Shown piece after piece: positions 4,742-36,142 of a stretch of 41,139 nt of DNA. The notes under the pieces were generated by a model. That model was not told the origin of the DNA. It made no database searches and saw only the letters and a program-made list of their open reading frames with translations. The stretch spans positions 1 to 41,139 of the forward strand of contig JAUCBJ010008213.1 in assembly GCA_032718475.1 (NCBI GenBank), written 5' to 3'. Both the position numbers and the translations under genes were made by a program. The stretch is from Nemertoderma westbladi (lineage: Eukaryota; Animalia; Xenacoelomorpha). The stretch's first letter is position 1. The number at the start of each line of letters is the position of its first letter.

Positions 4742-5199
4742 GTTAGTTATTAGTTTTATTTATTTTTCTATATATTCACGGTACGGGTTACCGGTACCGG
4801 TATAAGTGCCGTCGATATTTATGCAGCAGTAGCGGTATTTAGTAACCGCATTATCTAGTTTGCATTTTGGTTCTCTCAACTACTTTCCTTTAGTTTAGTT
4901 TGTCAACTTGTAAAATTGACCTCTTTAATTTTCTATATTATTGCCTGAAGTTCAATTTACTTTGATTTATTTAGTTCATTAATGCATAGCAGCATAGCAC
5001 ATTATCTTGTTTGAATTTTTTTACAGCTATTAATCGGTATCTATTAAACTGATACAGCACCGCCAGTCTAGTCGGTATGAAATGTATTTATCTGACCAGA
5101 ACATTTTACACCTTCGTTCTATTATGCACAATCCATTTCTAACTCTATTGATTATCATTAAGGAAATTGAATTAACCATAATTTATTTATTTTATATAG

Positions 5200-5355
5200 T
5201 TGTTGAGGATTTGGATAAAGGCAGAGAACCTCTACCTTCTATCGAGGCTGTTTATATAATGGCGCCTTCTCAGTCGTCAGTTCGACGATTCATGGACGAC
5301 TTCCGGGATCCCCCGAACTTTATGTACCGAGCCGCCCACGTATTCTTTACTGAAG
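5200..5355 (+). CDS. STXBP1: Munc18/STXBP1 coding exon 3
   Basis: TAG acceptor; (L)[51 protein letters not shown]; GTTTGT donor. Confidence 0.95.
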
Positions 5356-5443
5356 GTTTGTAACTCAACACTTTATATACCGTCAGCCGACATGTTCTAA
5401 GGTACAGGCCTATATAATTATAATTAGTTACTTTATTTTACAG

Positions 5444-6825: not shown

Positions 6826-9800
6826 TCGATGTAATTGAGCGATTCTTTTCTCTGCCAAGGGTCTGTTATTTATAAATCTAGGTTCTCGTTTTCGAAATGG
6901 TAGGCCGATTTCATATCTACCTTGGTCCTTTAAAAAACGTGTAGTTGTTTCCTGGATTTGCTTGGCTCTTTCTTCTTCTATCGATAGGGCCTTATCATAT
7001 GAATTGGGCTCTACCAGTTCCTGAGTAAAGAATCGTACGGCTAGTTCGTCCCGAGTTCTAGCGTTGTAGCGCTCTATCTCATCGTTTAGTTCGTCATTGT
7101 AAGCAATGGGTTCCGATGGGCGAATCAGTTGACATAGGTTCACCTGATTTTTCCAAGTTTGGTTTTCTGTAAGTAGGTCGATTGTGTTCTCTTCATCGAA
7201 GAGTTGGTAGATGTCGTCATTATCTGAGGAGTATGGTGTTCCCTCAGTTAGTTCGTCCACCTCACTGCTCTCCACTTCCCAATCGTTTACCTGGCACACC
7301 TGCTCCTGTGGCATTCTCTCTTCGAGAGTCCTGCGAGAAGGGCCAGTAAAGTACCAACCTACTCTAGTTCTTACCGCATAGGTTTGCAGTGGCTGTGGTT
7401 GAGCAGGCCGTTTCTCCAATGTTTCGAGCGCCTCATGCGCGTTTTGGCCGATGAGTATTTGCACTCCAGGATAATCTGTCTGGAATCGAGGTATCTTAAG
7501 ATGTTGGATACTCTCATCTTCGTCCCAATTATAAAGGTCTGCCTGAGTAGTAGCGAAGTTCTTTATAGCCACCATTTTTACCGACCTTATACCTTGTGCT
7601 CCTAATTTATCCTGGGGGGTGGACAACACACCTACATAGTAATCTGCCGTTAGGGTAGATTTCCAAACCTGCATAATTCCTGACATATTCAATTTAGTCC
7701 GGAATTTGGGTTGTCCAGCAAAGATATCTTCGGCTAGTTCTTGATCGATGAATGTTCCTGTGCTGCCGGAGTCAAGGAGTGTGTTCACTATGTAACTGTG
7801 GTTAGGGCCGTGAACTCTTACCTGCACTACAGGAAATTCTCTGATTCCTACGTTGGAAGTTGGAGCTTTCCAAGATGGTTGTTTGGCAAAAGTAGTTGGG
7901 GGAAACTCATTGTTGGTGTCCTTTTCATAAGTAAGTGCTCGATACACTGCGGTATTGATTAGATAACAGGATTCGTTGGCGTCGGAGAATTCGTCAGTAT
8001 AGAATCCTTCCATCTCAGACTCCTGATCAGTGTCATTTACATCACTGAATTGGACATGTAGTTCGGGCTCACTTACCTGACTCTGTTTGTCTCGTTCGAA
8101 CTCGCTGTGTAACAAGATGTGATGTTTCGCGCCACACTTTATGTCGGAGTAACAGGTTCGCCGTTGGTGTCCTGGTCTGAGGCAATTATAGCATAACCGC
8201 TTGTCCCACACGACTGCACGTCTGTCTACAAGGGATTTCTTTAGAAATTCAGCACACGCACTCAAACGGTGGGTCCCGTCGCACAGCGCACAGTTAGGTT
8301 TTATGTTACTCACTTTACCTTGGGTAACTTGATGCACTCTCGTTTTTTCTTCGGGTTTTCTTCGGTGCATTTTGTTAGGAGACTGAGGAGGGGTCTTGGC
8401 AACCTGTTCTCTCCTATCGTTGTTTCGAGTCTTGTATTTACTTACGTCCTTTGAGGTTTTGTCAACATAGTAAGATCGATCGGTGTCTTTCCCGCTGTCC
8501 TCTTCTTGAGAAGCTTGGCTTTCGCCATCATCATTGTAACACACCGGTGTTACTCTTCTCCTAGAAGCGGGTTTCTCACTTACCTTATTTTCCGATGTTT
8601 TCTCTCTGGACTGCTTGATGAGTTGTAGTTTTACCTCACCATCTAAGAAGGACATGAGATCAGCCATGGTAGGGCTTCGTCGTTGTTGTTCATTCATGTA
8701 CAACACTTTCTTGTCCCAGCGTGTACATACTCCACCCTTGGGTAAAGTAGAGACTACGGCTCCAATAACCATGGAACTTTGATATTCATGAGACTTACCT
8801 AACCAGTCCAATTGTCTACAGATCTCCTGAATCTCATCGGAAAACTCTATAATCCCGCTACTAAGGAAGTTTCGGGGGGCTACTAATTTTGCATACAAAT
8901 ACTTAGCTATGTTATCCTTGTTACCATACCTGATGTTTAATGTATCCCAAACTTGTCTTAATCCTTCTGGATGTCCAATAAACGTTAACGCCATTAACTT
9001 GGGAGGTCCTTCCAAGCACTTTATGAGGAACCTAAGTTTCTCTCTGTTAGATAGCACAGAGTTCTGTATGCTGTCTTTGTAATATTCGTTGAAAGGTAAC
9101 CATTTCATCTCATCTCCATTGAATTTGACGATCTCTCCCACTTTGACCGCTTGGCGGGCTTCTGTTCTAGCCATCTGACGCGTAAAGCTTTCTTGGGCCA
9201 TCGTGTTATTTAATATCGAATTATCGGTATATAAATTTCTCGGATCATTGTCAGGTCTATAGGGAATATCATTAATAACAGGTCTATAATCACCCTTAAT
9301 AGGGTTTGCTATAGGAGTTTCTACTTCACTAGCAGTATAGATGCGTGTAGGCTCCACACCTTGCGCATGTAATACTTCAGACCTAACAGGTTGACACAAT
9401 GTTACAGGGGGTATTGGTATGCCCTTTTGTATATTGACTAATTTGTCGCGTTCCAGTGCGATACTTTGCTGCACTTCTTGCAATTCTGCCCTACTTTCCC
9501 TTACTGTTCCCTTAAGCTGGTGGACAGTCTCCTGCATCTGTCCGAGCAGGAGGTTCATCCCCCGCCGTCCCTCTTCTACCCACTCTACCGCCGCAGCGGG
9601 AGTCGCCAACATTGTAGCGGGCTGACGCGGGACGACGGGAGACAAGTCTTTGATTTCTCTCTCAGCTTCCAGGACAGGGATATTCTCATGGACTGTTCTA
9701 CCGGGTACAGGCAGTGTAGTACTGTGTAAAGGGAATTTAGAGTTAAGCTCTGGAAGTACAGGGGTCTCTAGCACAGAAGTGACTTTGGGAATGACAGGCC

Positions 9801-10407
9801 TAATTATTTCAGGCTCATCAACTATTGTAGGGAGTCTTTTGACCCGAATAATTTGTTCTGTGGGTTCTGTATTGCCTAAGTCTGCGCTAGTTAGTTGTCT
9901 TCTAACCGCCGGGGGCAAATTAGGCAATTTGTGGCGGTGAGATGTTTTTCTACGCCTGCTTAGACGAGATCTGTTTCCTCCGTCTTCAGGATCGGTCGTT
10001 TCGCTTTCCTCCGATGATGTGTATCCCTGGCGCTTGGGAGTAGATCGACTCCTCATCTGCATTTGACTAGCAGTTAACTGTTTATTTATGCAGTCTTGCG
10101 TCTCTTGAAGATTTTCCAACTCCAGTTGTGTGGTCTCTTCAGACGCTCTCTGTTCTGCTTCTGCCAATGCTATTGCTGCTGCTGCTTTGGCTGCTTCTAC
10201 TGTCGCTGCAGCTTTTGCTTCTGCTGCTGCCTCTGCTGCCTTTGCCGCTTCCACTGCCGCTGCCGCTTTTGCCTCTTCCACTGACGCTGCCGCTTTCGCC
10301 GCTGCTACTGCCTTTTTGTCCTCTATCCGCCTTTTCTTTACTTGTTCTTCTTGGACTCTAGCGAGGCGGAGTTTTTCATCAAATTCAGCTTGGTTAGCAG
10401 CTAACAT
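6790..10407 (-). CDS. BEL/Pao Gag-protease polyprotein, truncated just before RT
   Basis: KFNGDEMKWLPF..EKLRFLIKCLEGPPK (DUF1759-like Gag); CALCDGTHRLSAC / CYNCLRPGHQRRTC / CGAKHHILLH knuckles; LLDSGS protease; GRYEIGLPF..NRPLAEKRIAQLHRRL pre-RT motif. The last ~9 codons derive from the L2. Confidence 0.9.
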   Translation of the reverse strand: MLAANQAEFDEKLRLARVQEEQVKKRRIEDKKAVAAAKAAASVEEAKAAAAVEAAKAAEAAAEAKAAATVEAAKAAAAIALAEAEQRASEETTQLELENLQETQDCINKQLTASQMQMRSRSTPKRQGYTSSEESETTDPEDGGNRSRLSRRRKTSHRHKLPNLPPAVRRQLTSADLGNTEPTEQIIRVKRLPTIVDEPEIIRPVIPKVTSVLETPVLPELNSKFPLHSTTLPVPGRTVHENIPVLEAEREIKDLSPVVPRQPATMLATPAAAVEWVEEGRRGMNLLLGQMQETVHQLKGTVRESRAELQEVQQSIALERDKLVNIQKGIPIPPVTLCQPVRSEVLHAQGVEPTRIYTASEVETPIANPIKGDYRPVINDIPYRPDNDPRNLYTDNSILNNTMAQESFTRQMARTEARQAVKVGEIVKFNGDEMKWLPFNEYYKDSIQNSVLSNREKLRFLIKCLEGPPKLMALTFIGHPEGLRQVWDTLNIRYGNKDNIAKYLYAKLVAPRNFLSSGIIEFSDEIQEICRQLDWLGKSHEYQSSMVIGAVVSTLPKGGVCTRWDKKVLYMNEQQRRSPTMADLMSFLDGEVKLQLIKQSREKTSENKVSEKPASRRRVTPVCYNDDGESQASQEEDSGKDTDRSYYVDKTSKDVSKYKTRNNDRREQVAKTPPQSPNKMHRRKPEEKTRVHQVTQGKVSNIKPNCALCDGTHRLSACAEFLKKSLVDRRAVVWDKRLCYNCLRPGHQRRTCYSDIKCGAKHHILLHSEFERDKQSQVSEPELHVQFSDVNDTDQESEMEGFYTDEFSDANESCYLINTAVYRALTYEKDTNNEFPPTTFAKQPSWKAPTSNVGIREFPVVQVRVHGPNHSYIVNTLLDSGSTGTFIDQELAEDIFAGQPKFRTKLNMSGIMQVWKSTLTADYYVGVLSTPQDKLGAQGIRSVKMVAIKNFATTQADLYNWDEDESIQHLKIPRFQTDYPGVQILIGQNAHEALETLEKRPAQPQPLQTYAVRTRVGWYFTGPSRRTLEERMPQEQVCQVNDWEVESSEVDELTEGTPYSSDNDDIYQLFDEENTIDLLTENQTWKNQVNLCQLIRPSEPIAYNDELNDEIERYNARTRDELAVRFFTQELVEPNSYDKALSIEEERAKQIQETTTRFLKDQGRYEIGLPFRKREPRFINNRPLAEKRIAQLHRRLHPSDSSVWC

Positions 10408-10439
10408 TTCAGCATCGATTGAGTCTAACCACGCTGGGT

Positions 10440-11489
10440 TCCTTCACTATTAGGGGAAAGTCCAGACAGCCGTCTCCTCAACTCTTCGTCTCCTAGGAAT
10501 CGCTGATAGTCGGACAGATAAATGTCTATGGCGTCTCTCGTTCGTGGTCTCTCTGCGGTCTCTTCGCCTTCCACTTGAGAAAGGGTGGCATCGGTTGGTT
10601 CTTCATAGGTTAGTCTCTCAGACAGCTGGGATTTCCACTGGTCCGTTTCTTGTACTTTGAGACCTACCCGCTGGAACCAAGTTTTGACAGCAACCTGCAG
10701 CGACGTGTCCTGTCTTCTTTTGGAAGTTTCCTCAAAGGCTGATAGGATTAGTCGAATGCGTAGGGTTCTTTCGCGTACTTGATATAGCAGTTCTTCCTGC
10801 TCTTAAGGTCCTTGGGGTTGTCGAAACAGTTGTTCTTCTAATCGCTCTAAGGAGCCGAAGAATCCCGGCACATATCCTGCTGCCGACCTCTTCCAAACAG
10901 CTGGATCCATCGTATCTTTAGCCACTCCCATCCTGTGTATATCTTCCCAAGTAGCTTCGGACAAATCTAACGGGAGTCCGGGTCCGGGAAAGTTCCATTG
11001 TGACTCGACAATAGACATCAATTCTTCCCTGGCGTATCCCGCATAATTATCTTGGGTCGCTCGCTTACTTCTCGCCCAATCGGCTTGATGTTCCTCCACC
11101 GCAATCAATATAGTAGTTAGCACTGCGGCAGGAAGGGTGAGAAGGGGGTCCGAGTAGGCTTTAGCCGCCATCTGCAATCCGCGTTCGGGAGTCAGCTCTA
11201 CAGTATCCGAACTACTGGAGCTATCTGATCGCTGGGAACAAGTTTCTTGACTAGGATGTTGCTGCTGTTGGACAGCTGCTTCCTGGTTCCGCTTGACTTG
11301 GGCCCGAGTTCCGATGATAGACCTAGGGTGTTGGATTAGCTTAGGGTCTGATACTACTACTGGAGGGATGGCCTTTCTTTCAGTAGGAGGTGAGCTGAAC
11401 TCCTTTCTTAATCGCTCCACACTCCTATCTGTGTCACAGATGGTTGTATCGATTAGACTGTCTGACAGGTTTTGCTGGGTGTCAGACAT
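10440..11489 (-). pseudogene. Probable disrupted N-terminal part of the same BEL/Pao polyprotein
   Basis: The 228-aa ORF from ATG 11489 stops at 10803, but the same frame stays open afterwards (EQEELLYQVRERTLRIRLIL...RRRLSGLSP) to ~10430. A frameshift near 10445 joins it to ..WLDSIDAEMLAANQ. Confidence 0.6.
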
Positions 11490-12824
11490 GTTTAGCTATA
11501 CAGTTGAATGCTTACTGCTATAGTTACAGTTAAAGCAAGTCTAGTAATTCAGTATGACCGTGGGCCTAGTACTGGTAATTTATTGCAGTATATTAGAATA
11601 CCGGTATGCACTTATAATATATATAAGTATTGTAAACTAGTTTTGTCACAGAGTACCGGTATATAAATTTAGCACAAATATATATAAATATATAATAGGC
11701 CTATCGTGAATACCGGTATACAGCTTACACTTATAGTATATATAAGTATAATTATGGACTAGAATTAATTACCGAATACCGGTATGATTTCAGCTCAAAT
11801 TTATAGAAATAAATATAATAAGCCTATGGTAAATACCGGTATGTCAATTATTTTAGAATAATTGAATTTCTGAATATTTTAGGGTTACTTGGTTACTTTA
11901 ACTTACTTTATTACCGTTATTTAAGCAGTAGTCCAACTGATATTGAGACCTAGTTGTTGTATGGCAGGCCTACTATTTATAAATCGTTTGAGTTGATTTA
12001 TAATATATATATACCCGTTTAAAAGGGTTTTGTCAATATTTGAAATAAATGTTATTATTTCTGGGGGAGTCACTACACAGAAGCTGTGCGCTCTCAGTGA
12101 AGTGCTACCTATGGGACACTAAAACAGATAATTCTAATTTACCTAAGTTACTTAATACTACAAATTACTTACGATACGGGTGAGATTAAATCTCTAATTA
12201 AACACAACAAAAATATTACGTACGAAATTTTAGGGTAATTTTACAGGAAGTCTACAAACCAGCCTAACAAAGGGTTAGATTTCTGGTTATTACAACGGAC
12301 AGGGTACTACGGTATTTGAAAATAATAAGTAGTAGTAAATATATTGCACTGTCCAGATAGGAAAATACCACCGCCTGACGACCTATAGCCGTATCGCTAT
12401 AGGTACTACGTTATGTATCACGGAGTGTTCCTACCTGGAAGTTAATTACCGCGGACTACCAGATCCAACGTGCCTATTAACCACTTTACAACACAAATAT
12501 ACTGCCTACACTAATTACCCTCGGAAAGCACTGTACACTAAACCCTAAATTAGGTACAAGTACTGGTACAACAAATAATCAGTAGTTAAATATACTTGAA
12601 CAGTTAAAAGAACCACGGCATCTGCTGGAGTGACCGAAGCACAAAGTCACCAGTCTTTTCCTACGCCAAGCAGCCCGTGTAGTACCGGGGTTAATTTAAC
12701 TATAACGGTATGTGTAACAAGCACAATTACTGTAGGAATAAACTTGGGGACATGAATGTTGCGAATAATTGCATAAACTCTGAATAATAAATATTACGCT
12801 ACCCGTACAGAATACTCAAACAAA

Positions 12825-17399: not shown

Positions 17400-18502
17400 A
17401 AATATAAAAATAACCCACAGATATTAGTTATGTATTATTATGTAGCCAGATCCAAAAAATACCTAGATAATTATATTTTGTGCATTTCTTAGTTTTGTTA
17501 CTTCGAAACTATATCGAGCTAGCTTGATTAATTTGTCCTTGTTATTTCTAGTCATAATTGGTTGGTTGGGGTATTGGTGAAGAATCTTTCTATGTATTTA
17601 TTCCTAAGATCTCTAAAATATAAGCACTCAAGTAAAAAGTGGTATTCGTCCTCCACGCACCCTTTGCTACAAAGTTGGTATAAACGTTGATCGCGGGGAA
17701 TATTGTACCATCATCGGCCAATTTCAATTAATAAATTGTGTGAGCTACACCTAAAGCGACTTAAAACCCTACGAAGAGCAATGTGTTTATCGAAGTGATC
17801 AAAGTAAATTTCAAGATCGAAAGTATATTTACTATACAAATTCCATTTCGGTGAAAGATTAATAGATCCCCACCAAGATCGAATATATTGATCTTTAATC
17901 CTAGTTTGTACCTCGTTCAAAAATATACGTTCATTGCTAAACATACTCTTCTTCCCAAACATTAGAGAAACCTAAAGAGTCTAATAGTTGTTTCGTCCAT
18001 AATGCCCAGATTGAACAATTTGTTGAGTTAATAAGGTCTGATTGTCTTAGACAGTCATACAAGACTTTAGAAGTCTGTAGGTCGGAAGTTTAAGTATTTT
18101 TAACCAGTACTTCTTAATGATAATCAATTTTCGAACACAGTGGAAGAGTACCTGTTTCCCCAAAAACCATGAAGTTGGGCGGTGAAGTCTTGACAACAAG
18201 AAAGTATTTTAAGAATTTCAGATTTACTCGTTCTACTGACTATGCCTTGTGAATCCCCATATCACGCTTCCATAAAGTAGTATAGGTTAATTATAGAGTT
18301 GTAATGATATAAAACGATATCAAATGAAATGTGTGGTAAAGAGATAAAAAAATTTAATAGGGAAAAATAAGCTTTCTCGCCTTTGGATTGTGCTACAGAA
18401 AATTTCCCACTACTTGTAAAATAATCCCTAAATAGTTGTACTGGTTTACTATTTCAACTGGAGTACCATTAAAAATCCACATTAAATTACGAGGAATTTG
18501 AC
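17400..18502 (-). mobile_element. 3' part of a degenerate APE-RT LINE (RT thumb to C-terminal Cys/His motif)
   Basis: ..IPRNLMWIFNGTPVEIVNQYNYLG.., LSRFRCSSHNLLIEIGR, CVEDEYHFLLEC. Continuous with 25682 onward once the transposon is removed. Left boundary approximate. Confidence 0.85.
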
Positions 18503-18564
18503 TATGGCATACTTTTAGTATTTTTATTCGACATTTTATTTCCCCTTGATATTCTTCTGAATTT

Positions 18565-20010
18565 AGTCGCGAGATAAATGATTAAACTCGCGAGAAAATA
18601 ATTAATCTCGCGAGATAAATGATTAAACACGCGAGAAAATAATTAATCTCGCGAGATAAATGATTAAACACGCGAGAAAATAATTAATCTCGCGAGATAA
18701 ATGATTAAACTCGCGAGAAAATAATTAATCTCGCGAGATAAATGATTAAACTCGCGAGAAAATAATTAATCTCGCGAGATAAATGATTAAACTCGCGAGA
18801 AAATAATTAATCTCGCGAGATAAATGATTAAACTCGCGAGAAAATAATTAATCTCGCGAGATAAATGATTAAACTCGCGAGAAAATAATTAATCTCGCGA
18901 GATAAATGATTAAACTCGCGAGAAAATAATTAATCTCGCGAGATAAATGATTAAACTCGCGAGATAAATGATTAATCTCGCGAGAAAATAATTAATCTCG
19001 CGAGATAAATGATTAAACTCGCGAGAAAATAATTAATCTCGCGAGATAAATGATTAAACACGCGAGAAAATAATTAATCTCGCGAGATAAATGATTCAAC
19101 TCGCGAGAAAATAATTAATCTCGCGAGATAAATGATTAAACTCGCGAGAAAATAATTAATCTCGCGAGATAATTGATTAAACTCGCGAGAAAATAATTAA
19201 TCTCGCGAGATAAATGATTAAACTCGCGAGAAAATAATTAATCTCGCGAGAAAATAATTAATCTCGCGAGATAAATGATTAAACTCGCGAGAAAATAATT
19301 AATCTCGCGAGATAAATGATTAAACTCGCGAGAAAATAATTAATCTCGCGAGATAAATGATTAAACTCGCGAGAAAATAATTAATCTCGCGAGATAAATG
19401 ATTAAACTCGCGAGAAAATAATTAATCTCGCGAGATAAATGATTAAACTCGCGAGAAAATAATTAATCTCGCGAGATAAATGATTAAACTCGCGAGAAAA
19501 TAATTAATCTCGCGAGATAAATGATTAAACTCGCGAGATAGATGATTAATCTCGCGAGAAAATAATTAATCTCGCGAGATAAATGATTAAACTCGCGAGA
19601 AAATAATTAATTTCGCGAGATAAATGATTAAACACGCGAGAAAATAATTAATCGCGCGAGATAAATGATTCAACTCGCGAGAAAATAATTAATCTCGCGA
19701 GATAAATGATTAAACTCGCGAGAAAATAATTAATCTCGCGAGATAAATGATTAAACTCGCGAGAAAATAATTAATCTCACGAGAAAATAATTAATCTCGC
19801 GAGATAAATGATTAAACTCGCGAGAAAATAATTAAACTCGCGAGAAAATAATTAATCTCGCGAGAAAATAATTAATCTCGCGAGATAAATGATTAAACTC
19901 GCGAGAAAATAATTAATCTCGCGAGATAAATGATTAAACTCGCGAGAAAATAATTAATCTCGCGAGATAAATGATTAAACTCGCGAGAAAAATACACATC
20001 TCGCGAAAAA
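18565..20010 (+). repeat. Left subterminal array: 41-bp dimer (21+20 bp), roughly 70 CTCGCGAG monomers
   Basis: [CTCGCGAGATAAATGATTAAA CTCGCGAGAAAATAATTAAT]n; count estimated as length/20.5. Confidence 0.97.
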
Positions 20011-20110
20011 AATCGCGATTGGCTGTTAATTGGGACAGTAGGAAACGGCCATCCAATAGCAGCAGAGGAAATACCCTTATAGGTGCAATAGGGATATATA
20101 TAATAGGTAT
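20011..20110 (+). promoter_or_regulatory. Putative promoter of transposon ORF2: two opposed CCAAT boxes plus TATA-like sequence
   Basis: ATTGG 20018-20022, CATCCAAT 20050-20057, TATATATAA ~20095; layout mirrored at the other end of the element. Confidence 0.45.
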
Positions 20111-20794
20111 TAAATAGGCCTTCTTTCTATATCATTCATTTCAGCATACCGTAACATTATCTCTGCCTCCTGTCTGTATTAAGGGGCGTCGTGTCGAGTT
20201 TAGGGTAGCATGTTTGTTTATACAAGCCAGAGTTGCAATATTGTATTTGTACTTTGGTACAATAGCCGCTCGGCGCGGCGGTCCCTATTCTGGACTGAAT
20301 TTTTGTTTAGCAGTAGTCAGATGCATGATTTCTACTTAATGTGATTCTTTTAAATTCAATAAAAATTAATAATTCAACAAACCATTAAATTGATGTACTA
20401 TATTAAGTGTTACAGTTTATAATTAGCGCCCATACGCCCATGTGAAGAATACCAGGATTTCACTTTTCGGACGACCTTTTATTGGAATTTTATATTAAGA
20501 TTTTTAATTTTTTTTAAATTTATCTTTAATAAATGTTTTATATGCGTTTATTTCTGTCTTATAACCTGTACATACATATACTATTTCGTTTATTGTTTTG
20601 GTTAAATTCAGCCCTTCTGTAACCTGTGTTTTTGGTCAAAACCTGGTATTCTTTACATGGGGGGTAACCGCAAAGTGAAATATAACGGCAGAAAGTCTGG
20701 TATTCTTCACATGGGCCATTATTAGTATTATGCTGTTGATACGTTGGCTGAATTGGGCCAAAATTAATTATATTATGAATGGGAGAATCTTTTA

Positions 20795-21030
20795 GGCTCG
20801 TTAAGCGGTGTGGTCTCGTTACGGCTAATGTCTCGTTACGGCTAATTTTATGAGAGATTAGCCGTAACGCGACTTTCAAAGTCGCGGTACGGCTACTCTA
20901 AAAGTCGCGTTGCGGCTAATTGTCGCGTTACGGCTAATTGTCGCGTTACAGCTAAATTTTTGAGAGATTAGCCGTAACGCGACTTTCCGTAATGCGACAT
21001 TAGCCGTACTGCCACTGCGCCCGTTAAGCC
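20795..21030. repeat. Small foldback/MITE-like module of GTTACGGCTAAT repeats in both orientations
   Basis: CGTTACGGCTAAT-like units forward at ~20817, 20835 and 20885-20955; ATTAGCCGTAACGCGAC reverse at ~20857 and 20967, with ATTAGCCGTA at ~20999. Confidence 0.7.
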
Positions 21031-21223
21031 AAGGAATAATGCCTGTTCACCACCACATGTAAGTCACCATTTCATTCTAATAATTAATTTTGGAATTCAG
21101 CCACCGTATGTAGAAAGCCTACATACTTTACAATATAAAACATTTATTAGGAAAATATTATTGACAGATTGCATTTGTAGCTTGAAAAAATATTTGACAA
21201 TTTCCCGCCGTCAATGCAGAACT

Positions 21224-22492
21224 ATGATCTGCCAGAATTGCAGTAAAACTCTTAGTGCTGAGGATAAGTTTTGTTCACATTGTGGCACCAGTTGCGATAT
21301 TGCTTCAGTTCCTAGTTCAAATAGGCGTGAGTTAATAGCTGAACTAAATCGTCAATTTGCACCATATGCATCGGTTCCAACTGGGTCAGTAAGCCGACGA
21401 CGAATAACTCCATCTCGTGCACGTCTTTCTTCTCCCCGTGGAAGGCCAGCAGCAACGACTTTCAGTAAGGCAATGGTTGTAGTACGTGGGAAGCATTATA
21501 AAGATGAATTAATTACTATCAAACATTCTAACATAGTGAAGCATTGCATGCTCGATTTCTGTAGCATAGATACAGCTGAGGAAATTAGAAACAAAATCAT
21601 ATCTGTGCTTGAAACTCACCCGAGTTGCATTACTGAGTTTACTTATGTAAAGGCCCCCAACAGGGTAGTTACTCCCATATGTGTTAGCGAGAATTTCAAG
21701 TTTAATGGTGATGCCATTTCTTGTCTGTTTCCAGCGAAAAGAGCAATTTATGTTCAACTTAAAGAAGTTGATACTCTTGAAGAGGAAGATAGTCCATTTT
21801 CTACTTTGGATTTACCGTCTTTTATGAGCCCCAATGTGACTGGTGGAAATATTCAATCGGGCAATGTCATTGAACAAAGCACCGAAAGCTCAGGTATACA
21901 TGTAGGAATGCTGCAGGCTTGGGATGGGAGAGACATTCTTGAAGCTAGCCCGGATGATGTAATTGATTCCGATGTCGAGGTTATAGAAGAAGATTCTGTT
22001 GTTAAACAATATGATGTCAAGAAAATGACAAAATTTACTACTACAGAATTAAAGGAGATTGGTAAAGTCCAGATTCTTTATGATTACGATACATTATCCC
22101 CGAACTATGTAGAACCAAGCCAGTTACAAGACATATCAATACGCCGTACATCTGCTTTACAGGATTTAATACGGAAGATTGAAAAGATAGATATAACTCA
22201 GGGGATTATGGTTCACTACTACGATGAGTCTGGATGTGACAATGGAGGTCTCAGGCGAGATATGTTTAGTACGGTTATTGGAGCCTTGCTGAACTCGTCA
22301 ATGTTCCTAACAATTGATGATTACATTGTGCCTGCATTAGTAGATGTTGTTAAGGTGTCGAATGGGAGTTTTAAAGCAGTCGGTAAAATTATTGGTAGCA
22401 TTCTTCTACACGGCGAACAGTTGCTTAGCATCCTGCATCCTATTGTGAGCAGGTATATTGTGTTCGACGCAAATCCCATCTTGGCGAATTAA
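21224..22492 (+). CDS. Transposon ORF2: N-terminal zinc ribbon, central globular domain, acidic linker, N-terminal part of a HECT E3-ligase-like domain (no C-lobe)
   Basis: First ATG at 21224: MICQNC..DKFCSHCG. ISIRRTSALQD..IMVHYYDESGCDNGGLRRDMFS..FKAVGKIIGSILLHG resembles the HECT N-lobe signature (V.F.GE.G.D.GG..RE.F). Stop at 22490-22492. Confidence 0.75.
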   Translation: MICQNCSKTLSAEDKFCSHCGTSCDIASVPSSNRRELIAELNRQFAPYASVPTGSVSRRRITPSRARLSSPRGRPAATTFSKAMVVVRGKHYKDELITIKHSNIVKHCMLDFCSIDTAEEIRNKIISVLETHPSCITEFTYVKAPNRVVTPICVSENFKFNGDAISCLFPAKRAIYVQLKEVDTLEEEDSPFSTLDLPSFMSPNVTGGNIQSGNVIEQSTESSGIHVGMLQAWDGRDILEASPDDVIDSDVEVIEEDSVVKQYDVKKMTKFTTTELKEIGKVQILYDYDTLSPNYVEPSQLQDISIRRTSALQDLIRKIEKIDITQGIMVHYYDESGCDNGGLRRDMFSTVIGALLNSSMFLTIDDYIVPALVDVVKVSNGSFKAVGKIIGSILLHGEQLLSILHPIVSRYIVFDANPILAN

Positions 22493-22675
22493 TATCCCGC
22501 CTCAATGTTTAATTCTCAATTTAGGGAAAGGAGCAGGTTACAGTGGCACGTTATTTTAACCAAAACAATAAACTAAACACAATAGAACAGGTTACAGTGT
22601 CATTTTTGAGAGTAATCAGCTGTTATTTGCGTCGAATTTCCCCTGGAGAGGGATAAATTTTTATTGCGTCCAGTT

Positions 22676-22702
22676 CCCCCCCCCCCCCCCCCCCCCCCCC
22701 CC
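22676..22702. repeat. C27 homopolymer between the convergent ORFs
   Basis: Direct read. Confidence 0.95.
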
Positions 22703-22774
22703 TATCTGAACTTTTCTTAGGTTCTCGCATTATTATAAAGAAAATGGAAAGAAAATAAGGAGAACAATTATTGT

Positions 22775-24413
22775 TCAGTTAGAATCAAGAATTGTATTAT
22801 TAACCACAAATTCCTTGCAATATAGGTAGCAGTCAAGGCCATTGTTATGGTTATTACCATTGTTGTCAAACAGTTCTGCAATTTCGCCCAGTAAACGTTG
22901 TTCAGCTTCTACAGATAGGGGAATATTGATGGGTCACACCAACAACAGATTGTTGTTCGTCCACTACAGGACCCTCCCAGTCTATTCCATAATTACTTAC
23001 TTCACCTGGCTCGTCCTCTATGGAGGTATCTTGAAGTCGACTATTTACGAAAATCTTTCGCGGAGTCCAGTAGTGTTCAGTGCGCAAACCGTGATTATTC
23101 CACCCAATAACGAATTCATTCAGTGCTGTATTGATGCGCTGCTTGAATGCCGTATGTAAACAATATATGTCATGAACATTTGAGGGGTCTAAATATTGAT
23201 TATCTTCAAGCCAGTGAAACAGTTTATAGTACACAATAATAACCGTTCGAAAAACATCCCTCCATAAACGTTCGATTCGTTGGTTGTGTGTACTTCTACC
23301 AGCTATGAAACTTCCCCGGTTTGTACCTCGACGATTTATCATATACTCTGCAACACTTCTGTTTTCACCTCCTTTGTCTCCCCTAACTCTAGAGGGCAAA
23401 CCATATTTATCAACAGCCTCTAGAAACAGAGGCAACACTGTCGATGCACAATTGTTACCAGACATTTGTAAGTAAGTAATTAGTCTAGAATGTCCATCAA
23501 TTCCGCCATGCAGGACTAAATTCCATCGTATGAGACTATGGTGTCCATCTATATGCCAAAGTGAGTTGGCCGCCTTTACGCTGTACTTTCGACGAAAGAC
23601 AAGCGCTCCCCATCTAGATGCGGATGAAATTGGATCTACCTCCTTAAGGATTCTATGAACAGCATTTAGTCCAGCAAATACATTTCTGCTACGAAGTATC
23701 GAGTTAACAAATCTACACCCAGCATAAGGGTATTGTTGGTGAATTTCTCCAATTATTCGTTTTAAATCTTCTTCATTAGTGTCGTGATAACGACGACGCA
23801 CACCCAGTTCATATTCTCGCACTCGATCCATTATTGTCGATCTGCTTACACCATACATTTTTGAAATCTGGGTCCATCTAAATCCACTTTCATGTAAGAA
23901 CGTGAGGATTTCCTTTGATATATCAAATTTCGGTCTACCACATCTTGACTCTAGATGAGTATCGATCGAGTTAATAGTTGGTACTTGTACAGCGGCAGTA
24001 GCTAAGGTTGTGCAACACGGACTAACTGGTATGGGAGTAGCTATTACTGTCTCTGAAAGTTTATTCAGATAAGTTAGATAATTCTCTCCTGCAGTATTAT
24101 TGTTAGGCGCATTTAGCCCATTTATAATGGTTAAACTATGTGAACAGTTCTCCAGTCTCGCTAATAAATGTTCCTTTAAATCTTGATGCAAGCGCATAGA
24201 ACTCGAATCAGTACTGTTCTCGATAAAGCGTTCGCATTCTTTAATTACGTCTTCCAAATGGTTCACAAAGAATTCGACGGGATCGTTTCCACCATCCATA
24301 ACAGTTAACTGTATTAGTAGGCCTAATAGTTCTGAATTAGTGTTTCTATAGACCTCACATGAAACAGCAGTAGCAGTGGCCAGTAAAATATACAACAAGT
24401 GATACGAATACAT
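22775..24413 (-). CDS. DDE transposase (rve integrase-core, IS3/IS481-like) with HTH; probable frameshift near 22935 in the C-terminus
   Basis: [25 protein letters not shown] (HTH); catalytic [25 protein letters not shown]. The called ORF ends at 22902, but a shifted frame continues [28 protein letters not shown] to 22775. Alternative start at ATG 24299. Confidence 0.9.
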
Positions 24414-24469
24414 GCTTTTCTTACGATAAAATATAACATAATAGATTCAATTATGCTGAAATGGCGTTG

Positions 24470-24560
24470 TAATCGCTTTTAAATATAGCCCTTACTTAAA
24501 TAACTATTGTGATTGGATGTTTGTTTCGTGTTGTCATAGAGAGCGCCAATCACGATTGTT
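24470..24560 (-). promoter_or_regulatory. Putative transposase promoter: two opposed CCAAT boxes plus TATA-like sequence
   Basis: Minus strand ATTGG 24550-24546, CATCCAAT 24519-24512, TATATTTAAAAG ~24487-24476, 60-70 bp upstream of the ORF. Confidence 0.55.
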
Positions 24561-25619
24561 CTCGTGAGATTATTTATTTATCTCGCGAGATTAATTATTT
24601 TCTCGCGAGTTTAATCATTTATCTCACGAGATTAATCATTTATCTCGCGAGATTAATTATTTTCTCGCGAGTTTAATCATTTATCTCGCGAGATTAATTA
24701 TTTTCTCGCGAGTTTAATCATTTATCTCGCGAGATTAATTATTTTCTCGCGAGTTTAATCATTTATCTCTCGAGATTAATTATTTTCTCGCGAGTTTAAT
24801 CATTTATCTCGCGAGTTTAATCATTTATCTCGCGAGATTAATCATTTATCTCGCGAGTTTAATCATTTATCTCGCGAGATTAATTATTTTCTCGCGAGTT
24901 TAATCATTTATCTCGCGAGATTAATCATTTATCTCGCGAGATTAATTATTTTCTCGTGAGATTAATTATTTTCTCGCGAGTTTAATCATTTATCTCGCGA
25001 GATTAATTATTTTCTCGCGAGTTTAATCATTTATCTCGCGAGATTAATTATTTTCTCGCGAGTTTAATCATTTATCTCTCGAGATTAATTATTTTCTCGC
25101 GAGTTTAATCATTTATCTCGCGAGTTTAATCATTTATCTCGCGAGATTAATTATTTTCTCGCGAGTTTAATCATTTATCTCGCGAGATTAATTATTTTCT
25201 CGCGAGTTTAATCATTTATCTCGCGAGATTAATTATTTTCTCGCGAGTTTAATCATTTATCTCTCGAGATTAATTATTTTCTCGCGAGTTTAATCATTTA
25301 TCTCGCGAGTTTAATCATTTATCTCGCGAGATTAATTATTTTCTCGCGAGTTTAATCATTTATCTCGCGAGATTAATTATTTTCTCGCGAGTTTAATCAT
25401 TTATCTCGCGAGATTAATTATTTTCTCGCGAGTTTAATCATTTATCTCGCGAGATTAATTATTTTCTCGCGAGTTTAATCATTTATCTCGCGAGATTAAT
25501 TATTTTCTCGCGAGTTTAATCATTTATCTCGCGAGATTAATTATTTTCTCGCGAGTTTAATCATTTATCTCGCGAGATTAATTATTTTCTCGCGTGTTTA
25601 ATCATTTATCTCGCGACTA
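24560..25619 (-). repeat. Right subterminal array, inverted relative to the left, roughly 50 monomers
   Basis: [CTCGCGAGATTAATTATTTT CTCGCGAGTTTAATCATTTAT]n is the reverse complement of the left unit. Confidence 0.97.
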
Positions 25620-25681
25620 AATTCAGAAGAATATCAAGGGGGAAATAAAATGTCGAATAAAAATACTAAAAGTATGCCATA

Positions 25682-28600
25682 TTTGACCACCTTTTCTAAA
25701 AACAACTATTTTAGACTTATATTATCTAGGTTAACATTTAGACCCCAAAATTCACAATATGATTCTAGAACGCTGATTGAACTTTGTAAACGTTTGGGAA
25801 TTCTAAAATAAGGGGTTCTAAAATAACAATGTCATCAGCGTATAGTAGAAGAAACAGACGCACGTGATAAATAGTGATACCCTGTATCCCACTCCCACTA
25901 TTACGTAATTCGGACTCCAGGTCATTAACAATCAAGTTGAACAATAGCGGAGACAGACAGTCTCCTTGTCTGACTCCTATCAGACATTCGAAAGAACCAG
26001 ACAGTTTTCCAGCACTACGGCCGCACCATTTAATGCTACTGTATATAATACTTTTTATCAATTTAACTATTTTTCCTGAAAACCCGAGACCTGACAGTTT
26101 CATCCACAAAGCCGTCTAACAAAGGCATGATCTATATCTGATTTAATCACAAATATTTGATATGCGGTAACTGTAAACTGAATCTGAAACCAGCCTGACT
26201 TTCAATAAGCACACCAAAACAATCCGTCCAAAATGTTAATCTGTTATAAACACCAAATAATTTTTAAAACATACAACAATTTTTAATTTATAAAACATCA
26301 ATTCGATGTCAGAAGTTTGCCAATAGTGCTTAACATCGTGACTCCCCGGTACTTCCCTGGGTCTAATCTCGAGCCTTTATTTTTATATAATGGGGAAATA
26401 ATACCTACTGACCAGGCTGAAGGAAAACAACCGGTAAATAGCACTGCATTGAATAATAATGTGATAATCGGTACCAACTGGTTTTATCCCTCAATGAAAA
26501 ATTCTGAAATAAGACCATCCTCATCTGGGGCCTTAGTAGTATAGGTTTGCTCCTCTCCTATACTACTAGCCTTACCTCGTTTCATATTACCAATTGCTTC
26601 CGATATTTCATCTTCCACAAGTGGCTGTGAGACATGAATCGAAAAAGAGTTTACTTTCGGCTAAATCTATTCCTGTGTCTCCTGATGGTACAAAACCGAT
26701 GTATTCAAATTTATTCCCACTATTGGATTTACTAAATTTTTTAAAATATTTTTCAAACTCCGAGAGTTACAGGAGAGAGGTGGTTTCACTTTTCTTCTGT
26801 AGATCATTTAATTTTCGCCAGTATCTTTTAGAGTTAGTAGTTTTATAATAATTTCTTAAGCAATTAACTTGATCCTCCAAAAACGGATATCTAGTCCACC
26901 GCTGCGCCGCTTTATACTCTTTACGTTTTGTTTGTACAAGTACAGTAGATTCTACCGTTTGCCTAATGTTGTTCGACTTTCGAGCACTATTAAAAGATAA
27001 TTTCGCTTTCCTGCATTCATCATTAAACCCAATTGCACCAGGTAAAATATTTGCATCACCCTGACAATTAGAGCACGAAAAGTTATTTTCTGCGACATCT
27101 ATGATTGTTTTACATAAAATATCAGATGCGCGTGTTACAGTATTTCCAGAAATATCACCCTCACAAAGTAGGTTGGTAATTTAATTAAATCTTAATTGCA
27201 CCGAATTTGATTCTAGAGATTGCCTAAAAGCATCGGCATGGTTAGGATGCCAAACGTATCGTTTATTAATGGGACTTCATCATCATAGGCAATGTAATCA
27301 AGTAGATTAGCTGTTCTAGAATTCAAATCATCAACTAATAAAATATCAGCATTGCCTATATAGGAAGCAATTCCTTTCTCAATTATATCAAACATTGACG
27401 CTGTGTCTCCACTATAACTAGTCGAAGACTCCGGTGGGATGTAAACACAACATATAAATACATCATTAGGTAAACCTAGAGAACTACTAATTTTAATCCA
27501 ACATAAGTCCTCAGTATGGGTTTGTTGTTTTGGCACAGATAAAAATAATTTGTGAGAAAATCACGGTAATAAATCATCACAGCCCCACTATACCGCTTAG
27601 CATTTGGGTGTTTGTATTTCCTATAAATATTTATAGGTTCCACAAATCCTTCGATTTCAATATTTATCATTGAGTTTGGACCTAGAAAGGTCTAATTACA
27701 TATAAAAAAAATCATATTTCTGGATGAGAGAGTGAATATCTGGTCTTTCCACATTTAAGTGTCCAACTCGCAGAGTCTTGATCTGTGACTATGGGATTTA
27801 ACCCACTCCTTGTTGGAATCAGTCAGTTGGTGAGGGTACATGTCCAGGCGGGTAATGGGTCCCCTGAGTATTCTTGACCTTCCACTCAGCAGACCCACCC
27901 GCGGTTTCTCGTTGAAATACTATCATGTTGTTATAATTAGTTTGATCACCTATTCCACCATTTTGACCTCGGCCACTACCCCTAATTCCTGTTCCGATTG
28001 TAGTTGTACCTTAAAACCCGCTGTTATATACCCAAGTGGTACTCTGATGATCAGCCTTGTAGATAGAGCTGCTGTTTGTCGGTATAGTTTCAGCTCCTGC
28101 ATATTGAATACCATTTCTATTTGTTCAAATGCTCGATTCTTTCCTCTGATATTGACTGGGGTCGTAGGAATTCGTTGATAAGTTCTGTAGTTAAGTCCAT
28201 ATTTGTTATGAAGGGTCGGGGAGGGAAGTCGATCTTTATTTATGGGTTCACAGTTGTGATAATTAAAGACAAAGCGATGTAGTCCTCTTCTCCCTGTTGA
28301 CACAATATTCCACACAGATGCTTGCTTTGATTTGGTGTATTTCTCGCGCGGGGGAATTTCCTCGTAAGGATCGTCTTCCCATCATCCAGATCCATTCCTA
28401 AGTATGATTTAAACATAATCCTCTTCGTTTGTCACCTTAGGTACTGTTGCATCTCTTGTTGGCTGGACTAGAGCAGAACCGCAATCGCGAGATAAATCAT
28501 TTAGCTCAGAGTTAGCATCAATACCGATTCCGTTTGGTCCAAATATATATTCTCCATTTCCCCCTTCTGGTTAAAGGAGGAGGAGGAGTACCTGTTCTTG

Positions 28601-31088: not shown

Positions 31089-33794
31089 CAAGCAGAAATA
31101 TGATCGGAGCAAGTTTGTGGTGCTGCTTCCCAGTGGTTACAGTCACTATATCGTGCGGTTCTAGTTCCATTTCACTCTTCCTTTGGGATTTCTCTCTAGT
31201 GACATTTGCTGGCTTGGCCTCTTGATAATAATGTATTCTGAAGCGGGGTGAGATTTCCCGATACGCAGACTGCTGTCAACTGATTGCATGCAATAACGTC
31301 GAGGTCAGTTGCATTTTACATTACTACTGAGGTAAAAAATTTTACTCAACGTCCTTGAATAATCAAATAAATAATTAATTGAAATATAATATTTAATCTA
31401 ACAATATCATTACAAAAATCTGCCATACATTGTAATCCTGATGTAAGCAGGTCATATTCATACAATGACCCTGTATGACGGAAAATTTAATAAATTAAGA
31501 TTAAAATAAAGTAATCCAACTTAGAAAAAGTAGTTTTCGCACTTCCGGTACCCGTTGTTACGATTTCCAATCGCTACTCTATTCTGGGGTTGGGAAAAAC
31601 TAGTTTCCCTCGATGATTAAAAATTATTTCATTTTGCACATCTTCTACAACATCGACAATGGTATACAACTATAGTGTCAATCGAATTCAATCCATCTCC
31701 ATGATTTCTCATCTCTTGTATAATCCAGTCCCTGGCCTTAAGTCATACGTCTTACGCCCTTACGTCATTTTATGACGTCATAAAAATGCAAATAATCATC
31801 TGTGTTCTCATCATTTTTCCAAATCAAGACACAAACAAAAAAACAACAAAAATGATATTATTATTTAGCTTTTGATACCAGAATTAACCAAGTATAACGG
31901 TTTTACGATGAATCCAATTAACCATAAACCGATCGAAGCGAGCTATAAAGAAAAGAGGGCACAGTAAAATAGTGATATTGGTATGAACACTGAGTTAATT
32001 TATTATTAAATGTTATATAATGTTAATTAAATGCTATGAACTAAATGTTGTAATTATGGAATATTCTCGCACTCAATTTCAAAATTGCATTTGCAAAATC
32101 ATGTGCAAGAAACGATATCTTTCCGGCATCTGCATCATCGCTTAGTATTGCACTTCTTGCTGAAACAAGTAATCGTCGCCCACAGGATAGAAAAGAAGTA
32201 CAGTTAACATTATTACATGAAATAATTGTGTCTTTTAACAATGTAATAAAAACAGCTATATATGGCGTATAACGCAAAAATACCCTGGTAATCTTTACCA
32301 CTTTCACCACAATCTATACAGTAAATTAGTATAAAATATGTATAATACTGTAGTTGCCGTGGAAACTGACGTAGTAAATACTCAAATCACCACAAATTCT
32401 TGAGATTGTGAACAGCTCACGGACACACAAAACAAATGGCTATAAAAAACTTATGCTCAGGGAGCAGAAAGTCTACCCAAGGATTTTTACACTCATATAT
32501 GTATGTCCTACTGGGATTCGGTGAGAAATCCCGTCCACCCCAAAATTCCTACCCGGTCTAAGACTGGAGTAGTAAGGGATATCTCGAATGGACTTCGGAT
32601 TCGAATGGTATCAACCTTAAGAAGAGAACTTAAAGGGGGGGGGGGGGGAGGGGGGGTAGCACTGCCCTATTTTGGAAATTGTAAAAACAATTTTAATCCT
32701 ATCATGTGCGGAATTTAATAGAGATTTCAATCCTCAAGCAGTTTTCTAATGTATTTTCTCAAACTCACTGGAGCTGAGCAACAGATATGGACCCTTGCAT
32801 CAGGGGCAGCAGATGACTGCGATGGCCATACTGCCTTCACAGACGTACTGAGGAAGTGCCGAGAGGCTCACAATGCGTAGAATGAGTACCGGTACTACAG
32901 TACAGCGGCCAAGAATGCAGTTAAGGCTGCATCTAGGTCCCCGAACAGGCATTACTCTGTTAATCTACAGGAGCTAATAAACCAACAGGTTGATGCCATC
33001 AATGATGCTGACGACAGCAGGCAATCATCCCAGGCATGGAAATCGATCAACTTACTTACTGGGCGGAAAAGCCAACCAACCACCACGGTTAAGGCAGAAT
33101 CACCAGATGATCGTGCCAGTAAAGTAGATAGTGTCCCCCATTGAGGTTTTTAATATGCCTAAATATTTGGTGCAAATTTGGTGCAAGCAATTATGAGATA
33201 AACAAAATGTTAAAAAAAATTTAAATTAAATTCAAACAATTAAATAGAATAAATGGCCTGCAGAGGAAGCAAATACACGTAACTTTTGAATGGCCAATTA
33301 TCAGCTATTTCCCAATCAAATTCAAATATGTTTACATATTTGTAATCCTTGCACTGCCAGCTTTCTATTGCCACCAACAAATTACTATAAAATTTAAGGA
33401 TAACTGCTGGAACGAACTGAATGACTGACTGTGGAAGAACGACTGGTGCAATATCGCTGGAGACTCTTTTTTCAATCCCTTGTAGCTAAACATTGAAAGC
33501 GAAAATATAAATTCTGGCTCACCCACTAAGGAGCAGGTAGGTGAAACTAACTCCGTTTCAAATTTCATGCAATTTATTACTTGCATTATATGGGATTCCT
33601 GAGGAAATTTTTGCGGGAATCGTCGATGGTTCGACGATATTTGCGTCTACCATTGATGGTGACACAAATTAATTCGAAGTATTATGGGGAGTTCTCCAGG
33701 GTGGCCTACTTGTACCATTATTATTCATAATTGTGGTTGTCTATGTTCTACGCATATCCTTAGACAACCATAATGATGATGGTAACACCCCCTA

Positions 33795-34856
33795 TGTTGC
33801 GATCCTAGATGGTTCGACAACATTTGTGTCTACTGTTGATGGTGACACAGAACCATTTGAAGTGTTATGGGGCATCCTTCAGGGAGACACACTTGCACCA
33901 TTCTTGTTCATAATTGTGGTTGACTATGTTCTACGCATGTCCTTAGATCATCATAATGATGATGGGGTGATGATAACTCCACCTACTGGCTCCAGAAGTC
34001 GAGGAAATCCTGCCAAGTACCTAACTGATCTAGACTTTGCTGATGACTTAGGAGTACTCTCAGAATCAATAGAGGGAGCCCAACGGCTCCTCTGCTCATT
34101 AGAACATGCTGCTTCTAGTGTTGGTCTTTTTATTAACTCCAGAAAGACCAAAATTTTTACAGTTAACTTTGAAAGTTCTCAGCAAGTCTCTGATCGGATG
34201 AGCATAAGCTCAAAGGATGGTATGCTTGAGCATGTGGGCGACTTCTGTTACCTGGGATCATGGATCCGGAAGTCAGGTGAGGACCTTCGAATACGTAAGG
34301 GAAAGGCATGGGCAGCCTTGAATAGGCTTTCCAGGATTTGGAAGTCACCGAGAATTAATCGGAAACTTAAGGTCCGATTATTTAGAGCAGCAGTAGTTCC
34401 AGTACTCCTCTATGGGAGCCCATGCTGGGCTCTAACTGCTGAGGACACCAAATCTCTGGATGGCACATTCACAAGAATGCTACGCCGGGTTCATTGTGTC
34501 AAATACAATGCACACATCTCCAACCAGACACTATATAACATTGGAGGTGTCTCATTGCTTCCCCCAAGCTTGACACTATAATAAAATCGCCTCCACTTTG
34601 CAGGAAATTGCTTTCGCCGTGAGGATCAGCCAGTGCATAATCTTGTACTTTGGCATCCTCATAGAGTGAATAAGCATGGTGGACAGCCCATGACTTTCTT
34701 GAGACGCATCTTAAAGGACACTGGCCTTGAAGATGCGGATGATCAAGCAATTGTCATGGGTGATAGGGAGTTGTGGCGGCGCAATTTTGTCGACAAGCCG
34801 GCACAGCATTCTTAAAAATGCAGCTGCAATGCAGCATGCCGATACTAGTAGTAGTA
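33795..34856 (+). mobile_element. Younger 5'-truncated RTE-clade LINE with (TAG)n tail and 13-bp TSD
   Basis: GILQGDTLAPFLF..DLDFADDL..FCYLGS..VLLYG; tail TAGTAGTAGTA; TSD GTAACACCCCCTA at 33782-33794 and 34857-34869; one in-frame stop at 34579-34581. Confidence 0.9.
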
Positions 34857-35009
34857 GTAACACCCCCTACCGGGTCAGCTCCAGAAGTCGAGGAAATCCA
34901 GCCAAGTACCTAACTGATCTAAACTTTGCTGATGACGTAGGATAACTCTCAGAATTAGGGAACCCAATGGTTCAGCAGCTCATTAGAAAAAAGGCAGCTT
35001 CTCGTGATG

Positions 35010-36142
35010 TGTAAAAGCTTTTGCGGACATAACAAGTCATTTTTACGCAATGCGCAGAATACTCTAAAATAGCCCTAAATTTATCCAACTACGCGACGGG
35101 AAGGAATTAGAACCAAGATGACGAAATCTGTCAGCTGATTCTTTGTGGACGTGGAGGTTATTTGTTCTGCATTATTCAGCCAATCAGAGCAATTTTACCT
35201 TTATGTCTAACAGAAACCTATGGAACTCGCGCAATGCATTACGGTCTTTGTTTACTATTTTCTGAGCATCAGAGCCAGCTCGGAATTTTCTGTGCTTCTG
35301 TGTGGAAGTTTCAGACTTTGGCCTAGGAACATCAGATGGCCTTGATTATAAGAACGTAAATCTATTAACTTAACTGACTGCATTTCATACTTGTCATACT
35401 TATTTGACGCACCACTGAACATTTCATAACTGCATAAGTAACACATACTGACATTTCACCGCATTATTTTACTTATGTTATTAATTGTTGTTATATTAAT
35501 GGATATTGCTGTTATATTTGGAGAATACCGATAAATAATCATAAACCCCTCAATCTTCTTGATTACTGAGGTAAGAGGAACAGGTTTACCGGTAGCAACT
35601 GCGACTTAAATTAAAGTGGTTTTGTGTGAATTAAATGCTATTTCATAATCCCTACGTGTGTCAGTTGCGATCCTCCTTATATATGATCAAATTCAGTGAC
35701 GGTCGGCAGATCAGTGTGCAGTAGTGTGAAGTAGTGTGAAGTCGTGTGAAGCAGTGTGAAGGTTAATAAAGCATCTCCTAAAGAATGCGCTATTTACGAA
35801 ACCCTGTGGCCATCTAGTTGTGATTAGTATAAGTCATAACTCTGTTTTTATACTTAAAGCGCCACGCCCTAAAGGAACTGTTAATATTTCCCCGAAAGTA
35901 AATATATTTGTCAGAGATTATATATTAACGATCAATCGAATAATACAGTAGGTCTACACTGCAATCACTCTCAAGGAATCCGAATCCAGTCTCCCACACC
36001 GTGGGTCATACGCCGCGCACGGACTGGCTTCGGCTTCAGTCTTCAGTACACTAGGTAATTGATATAGGCTAAAGTCGATTTATAAACAAGAGGACAACTA
36101 AAATTGGCAGGTTAAACTGCTAAAGGTCTAAAAGCGCGAACA
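35010..36142 (+). mobile_element. Solo LTR (1133 bp) related to the BEL/Pao LTR
   Basis: TGT...ACA termini; 5-bp TSD TGATG at 35005-35009 and 36143-36147; flanks rejoin as RTE sequence. Confidence 0.92.

Follow-up and report, generated by a model that had tools for sequence, protein, structure and literature searches.

What is a ubiquitin ligase gene that stops short of its catalytic lobe doing inside a DNA transposon? The gene in question is ORF2, an open reading frame in a contig of Nemertoderma westbladi (JAUCBJ010008213.1), the whole 41,139 nucleotides of which we refer to as the window. The first-pass annotation of this DNA offered two answers: either this copy has suffered an internal deletion of a transposon-borne HECT E3 ligase, or the transposon family encodes a catalytically dead decoy. 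To choose between them we examined the element, the reading frame, the junction at which it ends and the corresponding genes of related elements. It is highly probable, in our judgement, that ORF2 corresponds to the front half of the transposon's HECT ligase gene, likely truncated by a deletion, and that its product is inactive.

The element and its transposase

Where does the transposon begin and end, and to which class does it belong? ORF2 lies within a DNA transposon of 7,179 bp (18503–25681), in which it is convergent with an integrase-type transposase. The features that define the element are as follows.

18497–18502, + strand: left target-site duplication, TTTGAC
18503–19991, + strand: left terminal inverted repeat; TATGG end and 64-bp unique tip, followed inward by 34.8 copies of a 41-bp unit
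22775–24446, − strand: IS3EU transposase; Pfam rva_4 and HTH domains, putative D300–D357–E392; start codon not established
24559–25681, − strand: right terminal inverted repeat with a CCATA end; the 41-bp unit occurs 25.7 times
25682–25687, + strand: right target-site duplication, TTTGAC

Both ends are fixed because the transposon interrupts the reverse-transcriptase frame of a LINE (− strand), which breaks off at the right flank and is taken up again at the left. The host LINE is itself decayed and occupies 17711–18500 and 25682–27691 of the minus strand. The terminal inverted repeats are 98.3% identical over the terminal 119 bp and 98–99% over the longer arms. Since end repeats so alike are accompanied by a reading frame that is still open over codons 1–414 of ORF2, we regard the copy as young.

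The IS3EU/GingerRoot transposons are defined, in the main texts of three accounts (PMC10045372, PMC12730594, PMC6839031), by TA..TA ends of the form TAYGG..CCRTA and by 6-bp target-site duplications. The window element begins with TATGG at 18503, ends with CCATA at 25681 and is flanked on both sides by TTTGAC. The minus-strand frame 24446–22902 encodes an integrase-type transposase, which matches Pfam rva_4 at E 1.6e-78 and has HTH matches as well; Integrase_H2C2 (HHCC) was absent from it in the Pfam search. An N-terminal HTH, no HHCC and the acidic residues D300, D357 and E392 are what is expected of an IS3/IS481-like DDE enzyme. From the ends, the 6-bp duplication, the inverted repeats and the transposase domains, the element is an IS3EU/GingerRoot DNA transposon. 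It differs from the clubmoss GingerRoot elements, for which the published description gives ends of 100–150 bp, in having ends of 1.1–1.5 kb built of 41-bp arrays.

These arrays (18567–19991, 34.8 copies; 24559–25616, 25.7 copies) have palindromic TCTCGCGAGA cores. The inverted ends are CpG-rich and foldback-like in build, and far exceed in length those described for GingerRoot.

The transposase gene is not intact. A frameshift near 22935, ahead of the last ~52 codons, moves the C-terminal tail into another frame, which stops at about 22775; by eye, the tail past the frameshift looks like those of the transposases of two related elements, L012 and L065. When contigs of four sequencing runs were aligned to 20000–24600, the X1 and X2 contigs over the tail (22713–23308) showed 3 and 2 gap letters, respectively, relative to the window, at positions that the alignment summary does not show. 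The frameshift may not be common to all copies.

Elsewhere in the window there is the gag-protease frame of a BEL/Pao-type retrotransposon, 1,217 aa long (6790–11495, − strand; DUF1759), a set of reverse-transcriptase fragments within a decayed duplication of ~2 kb (33673–37002) and what is probably an exon of a host gene of the Sec1 family (5034–5363, + strand).

ORF2 as the probable front half of a HECT ligase

How much of a HECT ligase does ORF2 encode? Its parts are listed below.

21224–22492, + strand: ORF2, in all likelihood a truncated HECT E3 ligase gene; 422 aa, of which codons 415–422 and the stop come from a nested repeat
21230–21289, + strand: zinc ribbon, aa 3–22 (Pfam PF13240)
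21449–21793, + strand: unnamed middle domain, aa 76–190, common to the HECT reading frames of related elements
22073–22465, + strand: first part of the HECT N-lobe, aa 284–414, from sequence and fold matches

The CxxC..CxxC motif that had been noticed at the N-terminus is a Pfam Zn_Ribbon_1 (aa 3–22), scoring 26.1 bits against a cut-off of 25 (E 7e-6). The middle domain has no significant match in Pfam or the PDB; it resembles a ubiquitin-like fold, though we offer this as an impression only.

The HECT N-lobe-like segment of the first-pass annotation escapes the Pfam HECT model, which finds no match in ORF2 at E≤1, and is borne out by more sensitive comparisons. All 11 matches of a phmmer search of the PDB with ORF2 are HECT ligases, the best being Pub2 (aa 284–400, E 3e-4), and a 30-sequence profile gives 57 PDB matches at E≤0.001, every one a HECT (best E 2e-18). 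An alignment-based model of aa 283–414 has a pLDDT of 84, and each structure listed among its matches is a HECT domain, with TM 0.57–0.69 over the query; modelled without an alignment, the HECT part reaches a pLDDT of only 34. An exhaustive protein search returned 21 matches, 17 to the HECT part, one to the middle domain and three, unrelated, to the zinc ribbon alone; its top match carries the source name ‘HECT domain-containing protein’. Word-indexed protein searches with the whole of ORF2 or with the HECT part found no match. A search of the Atlas, which we treat as a source of leads only, returned unnamed eukaryotic clusters at 0.95 and a HECT cluster at 0.89.

ORF2 thus resembles the HECT E3s Pub2, WWP2, NEDD4, HUWE1 and E6AP (PF00632; domain account in PMC6457168) in sequence and predicted fold over the first ~130 residues of the N-lobe. 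Unlike these host ligases, it is missing the remainder of the N-lobe along with the whole C-lobe, to which the catalytic Cys belongs; nor are its zinc ribbon and middle domain those of any of the five.

Might the remainder lie elsewhere in the window? A C-lobe profile run against all six frames of the whole window found no C-lobe (best E 1.7), in agreement with the earlier view that the protein stops ahead of the catalytic lobe. A hidden C-lobe exon within the window is ruled out by the same search. Even the N-lobe is incomplete: ORF2 ends 73 native residues past its GG motif, and its relatives run on for 203–259 residues from theirs. We take the E2-binding subdomain of the N-lobe to lie in the part that is missing. 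Since a HECT ligase has its E2 site on the N-lobe and its catalytic Cys on the C-lobe, according to the account of the domain in PMC6457168, the product of ORF2 could not be an active ligase.

The junction at codon 414

What happened at the end of ORF2? The distance from its stop to the end of the transposase tail (about 22775) is 282 bp, as the earlier figure of less than 300 bp implied. What had been missed is that the 237 bases after codon 414 (22466–22702) are a high-copy repeat, one of three nested in the element.

20433–20720 (approximate), no strand assigned: small high-copy repeat 1, inverted ends; depth 4e3–4e5, loose contig ends at 20433–20435 and 20717
20800–21030 (approximate), no strand assigned: palindromic high-copy repeat 2; CGTTAAGC on both sides
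22466–22702, no strand assigned: very high-copy repeat 3; G-run/C-run inverted ends, the right intact, the left tip missing

The summed depth of the X1–X3 contigs is 33–284 in the bins of ORF2 as against 5e5–1.2e6 in the bin that starts at 22464, and the depth of repeat 3 exceeds 5e5 in three runs. The loose letters of the contigs before 22466 read as a G-run followed by AACTG in 153, 165, 158 and 29 contigs of the four runs. On the other strand, 22667–22702 of the window reads as a G-run and then AACTGGACGCAA. The loose letters therefore mirror the intact right end of repeat 3, from which it follows that 22466–22702 is a repeat with inverted ends that has lost its left tip. The boundary with ORF2 falls exactly between codons 414 and 415, so that the last eight residues and the stop are repeat-derived, and only ~72 bp of native DNA separate repeat 3 from the end of the transposase.

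In homologues the conserved HECT sequence goes on beyond the codon-414 break point. In 23 relatives, 507–2,170 bp of DNA lie between the point where the N-lobe match ends and the point where the C-lobe ends, so that at least ~0.5 kb must be gone from ORF2. A deletion of at least that size, ending at the left end of repeat 3, would be the simplest account. Repeat 3 would first have inserted at a point ~72 bp past the transposase stop. The deletion, running from the left G-run of the repeat back to codon 414, would have come afterwards and removed both the rest of the HECT gene and the left tip of the repeat. The transposase frameshift and the two nested repeats upstream of ORF2 are further signs of decay in this copy. 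The core of repeat 3 (22504–22629) recurs at 20584–20626, inside repeat 1, and at 2426–2457 and 37767–37932.

Could a G-quadruplex have driven the deletion? We regard this as a lead. The polarity fits, with the junction just 3′ of the G-run and the deletion running 5′ from it; yet the junction lies 5–6 bases off the G-run, and the loss exceeds the 50–300 bp reported for such deletions in C. elegans (PMC4654259).

The HECT gene in related elements

If ORF2 is a remnant, what does the whole gene look like? A degenerate transposase motif yielded at least 120 related metagenome stretches, 80 of them with flanks, and all 120 match the window transposase; a search of viral contigs gave no transposase match. 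These relatives belong to other families, with at most 62% identity to the window transposase over the aligned core, and are not sibling copies from the N. westbladi genome. In a quick tree confined to metagenome loci (54 rows, being those of L001–L080 with at least 130 aligned residues) the window transposase joins no supported group.

Among 139 frames of 100 aa or more that lie downstream of the transposase and converge with it, 8 had a Pfam HECT match, in each case within the C-terminal third of the profile. These eight frames seeded our C-lobe profile, and an N-lobe profile was built from 17 homologues, the window protein excluded; both were run in six frames. For the eight seed loci a match to the profile is circular, though they were first called by Pfam. 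Across the 120 loci, 68 of 69 HECT profile matches are on the strand opposite to that of the transposase and downstream of it. A convergent match is present in 28 of the 38 loci with at least 2.5 kb of downstream sequence, compared with one of the 22 with as much upstream; the other 10 of the 38 have no HECT match.

The N-lobe was detected in 25 loci. The C-lobe accompanies it at E<1e-5 in 20 of these and, as a weaker match with the Cys motif, in three more (L005, L007 and L018); L069 retains a frameshifted trace of a C-lobe, and L027 has none of its own. L027 and L018 are 96–97% identical on either side of a 1,148-bp gap that contains the C-lobe (L027:9909–9918, L018:6959–8106). The loss in L027 is a private deletion, similar in kind to the loss in ORF2 and independent of it. 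The catalytic Cys motif, xx[T/A]C, is present in 32 of the 33 loci with a C-lobe match. Of the 28 loci that span 5 kb or more, six have complete TATGG..CCATA ends and 6-bp duplications enclosing both transposase and C-lobe; these six, together with L007, L018 and L027, share one accession prefix and are not independent genomes.

The N-terminal parts of these HECT genes vary. A CUE domain is present in L080 (958–1758; Pfam E 8e-6), and a weak C2HC zinc finger with a SAM-like start was recognized by eye at L065:3059–4468; in L018 a weak PHD finger lies in another reading frame (2004–2882). No zinc ribbon was found in the 120 loci. The full layout that we ascribe to ORF2's own family is deduced from relatives that lack this domain, and is to that extent provisional.

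What of the middle domain? It recurs in protein P0005 and in the HECT genes of L012 (E 5e-8) and L062 (E 0.03). A profile of it recovered 57 proteins of 409–2,000 aa from 7,992 scored candidates, mostly by way of the L012 and L062 rows, and these proteins are 13–19% identical to ORF2. An N-lobe is present in every one of the 57; 48 of them extend into the C-lobe, 15 contain the Cys motif, and none has a zinc ribbon. Many of those without the Cys motif end at the point where the gene of L012 is broken before a separate last piece, a break that is probably an intron.

One subfamily has short HECT domains (P0052–P0108; L012:2807–5185; L062:172–1978), its named members being from corals. The span from the GG motif to the Cys is 166–222 residues. 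Compared with P0003 and P0014, these domains lack ~75 residues just past the point at which ORF2 breaks off, and they keep the Cys motif. The part they lack is presumably the E2-binding subdomain.

Lesion, decoy or misjoin?

We may now return to the two original answers. That of a loss from a transposon-borne HECT ligase is upheld as regards the loss itself, by the fusion of ORF2 to a repeat without its tip and by the C-lobe and catalytic Cys motif that the relatives keep; that the ligase was active, and an anti-silencing effector, belongs to the predictions taken up below. The other, that the family encodes a dead decoy, is not supported: it runs against that same C-lobe and Cys motif in the relatives' HECT genes, the kind of observation by which the first-pass annotation had itself proposed to judge it, although these relatives are of other families and that annotation had named sibling copies.

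Suppose instead that the truncation was accidental, but that the shortened protein is expressed as a dominant-negative decoy, binding the ligase's substrate without ubiquitinating it and so damping the active copies of the family. Codons 1–414 are open, the zinc ribbon and middle domain are intact, and the X1–X3 contigs that end 30–44 letters past 22713, on the repeat side, give a weak hint that the insertion is common to two studies. On the other side, the seven single-base differences listed for ORF2 (from the best-supported 40 of 179 rows) comprise four that change a residue and three that are silent, which are too few to judge selection and show no sign of constraint. The adjoining transposase is frameshifted, moreover, and the parallel loss of the C-lobe in L027 looks like ordinary decay. 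We consider such a decoy quite improbable.

There is also little chance that 22465/22466 is an assembly misjoin, the real copy having a full HECT gene. The break does fall at one of the most abundant repeats of the sequencing runs, and no listed contig piece covers 22123–22465 or spans the junction. Against this, both ends of the element and its target duplication are consistent with one another across 7.2 kb, and if two repeat copies had collapsed, an entire repeat would be expected, not one without its left tip.

That the family natively has a HECT N-lobe without a C-lobe, the repeat having trimmed just the last few codons, is exceedingly improbable: no intact sibling came to light, none of the relatives matches the zinc-ribbon layout over its full length and some of their HECTs are unusually short, but 24 of the 25 N-lobe loci have a C-lobe or its trace, the exception is a private deletion and the short HECTs retain the Cys motif.

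Discussion

The superfamily to which this element belongs is already known; its HECT cargo we have not found in print. No pairing of IS3EU with a HECT or other ubiquitin ligase appeared in the literature searched, though Repbase entries and supplements may describe such a gene. In the described IS3EU/GingerRoot elements, as far as the main texts of PMC10045372, PMC12730594 and PMC6839031 go, the words ‘HECT’ and ‘ubiquitin’ are absent, and the window element differs from them in its convergent HECT gene. A parallel is the TET+ IS3EU of rust fungi, which PMC12730594 describes as having a gene for a protein-modifying enzyme, an alpha-kinase, opposite to the transposase; the window element has a HECT ligase in that role and no TET/JBP or kinase gene.

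As accessory proteins for protein modification or control of the host, HECT ligases would find counterparts in other transposons. Zisupton carries F-box and Ulp1 genes, Ginger1 carries OTU and Ulp1, and VANDAL carries VANC, cargo that acts on ubiquitin or SUMO or against silencing. These elements are of other superfamilies, and their products are proteases, adaptors or DNA-binding proteins, not HECT ligases.

What might the intact ligase do? The prediction is that a host E2 loads ubiquitin onto the catalytic Cys of the ligase, which hands it on to a substrate that its N-terminal domains would pick. As that substrate we tentatively place first the element's own transposase or transposition complex, because a pairing of HECT and transposase that is fixed across lineages suits the element's own cycle. 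A host silencing or chromatin factor is also possible, and somewhat less probable; it is ranked second because N-terminal domains that change from one element to another, a zinc ribbon in ORF2 and a CUE domain in L080, suit host targets. Other targets seem unlikely. The fuller proposal, that the IS3EU/GingerRoot HECT is an active E3 that ubiquitinates its own transposase and so dismantles or limits the transposition complex, the short-HECT subfamily keeping its Cys in spite of the ~75 N-lobe residues lost, is one we put forward as possible, though less likely than not. If it is true, a DNA transposon of eukaryotes would be supplying an E3 of its own.

The truncation of ORF2 is ordinary decay of a single copy and carries little weight; the interest lies in the convergent, Cys-bearing HECT gene of most of its relatives. 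For work on the ligase the window copy is a poor start, and intact relatives are better. The pattern suggests that many of the invertebrate gene models named ‘HECT domain-containing’, those of corals among them, belong to transposons. Were the ligase active, it would tie DNA transposition to ubiquitin, either through a transposon's control of its own transposase or through removal of a host restriction factor.
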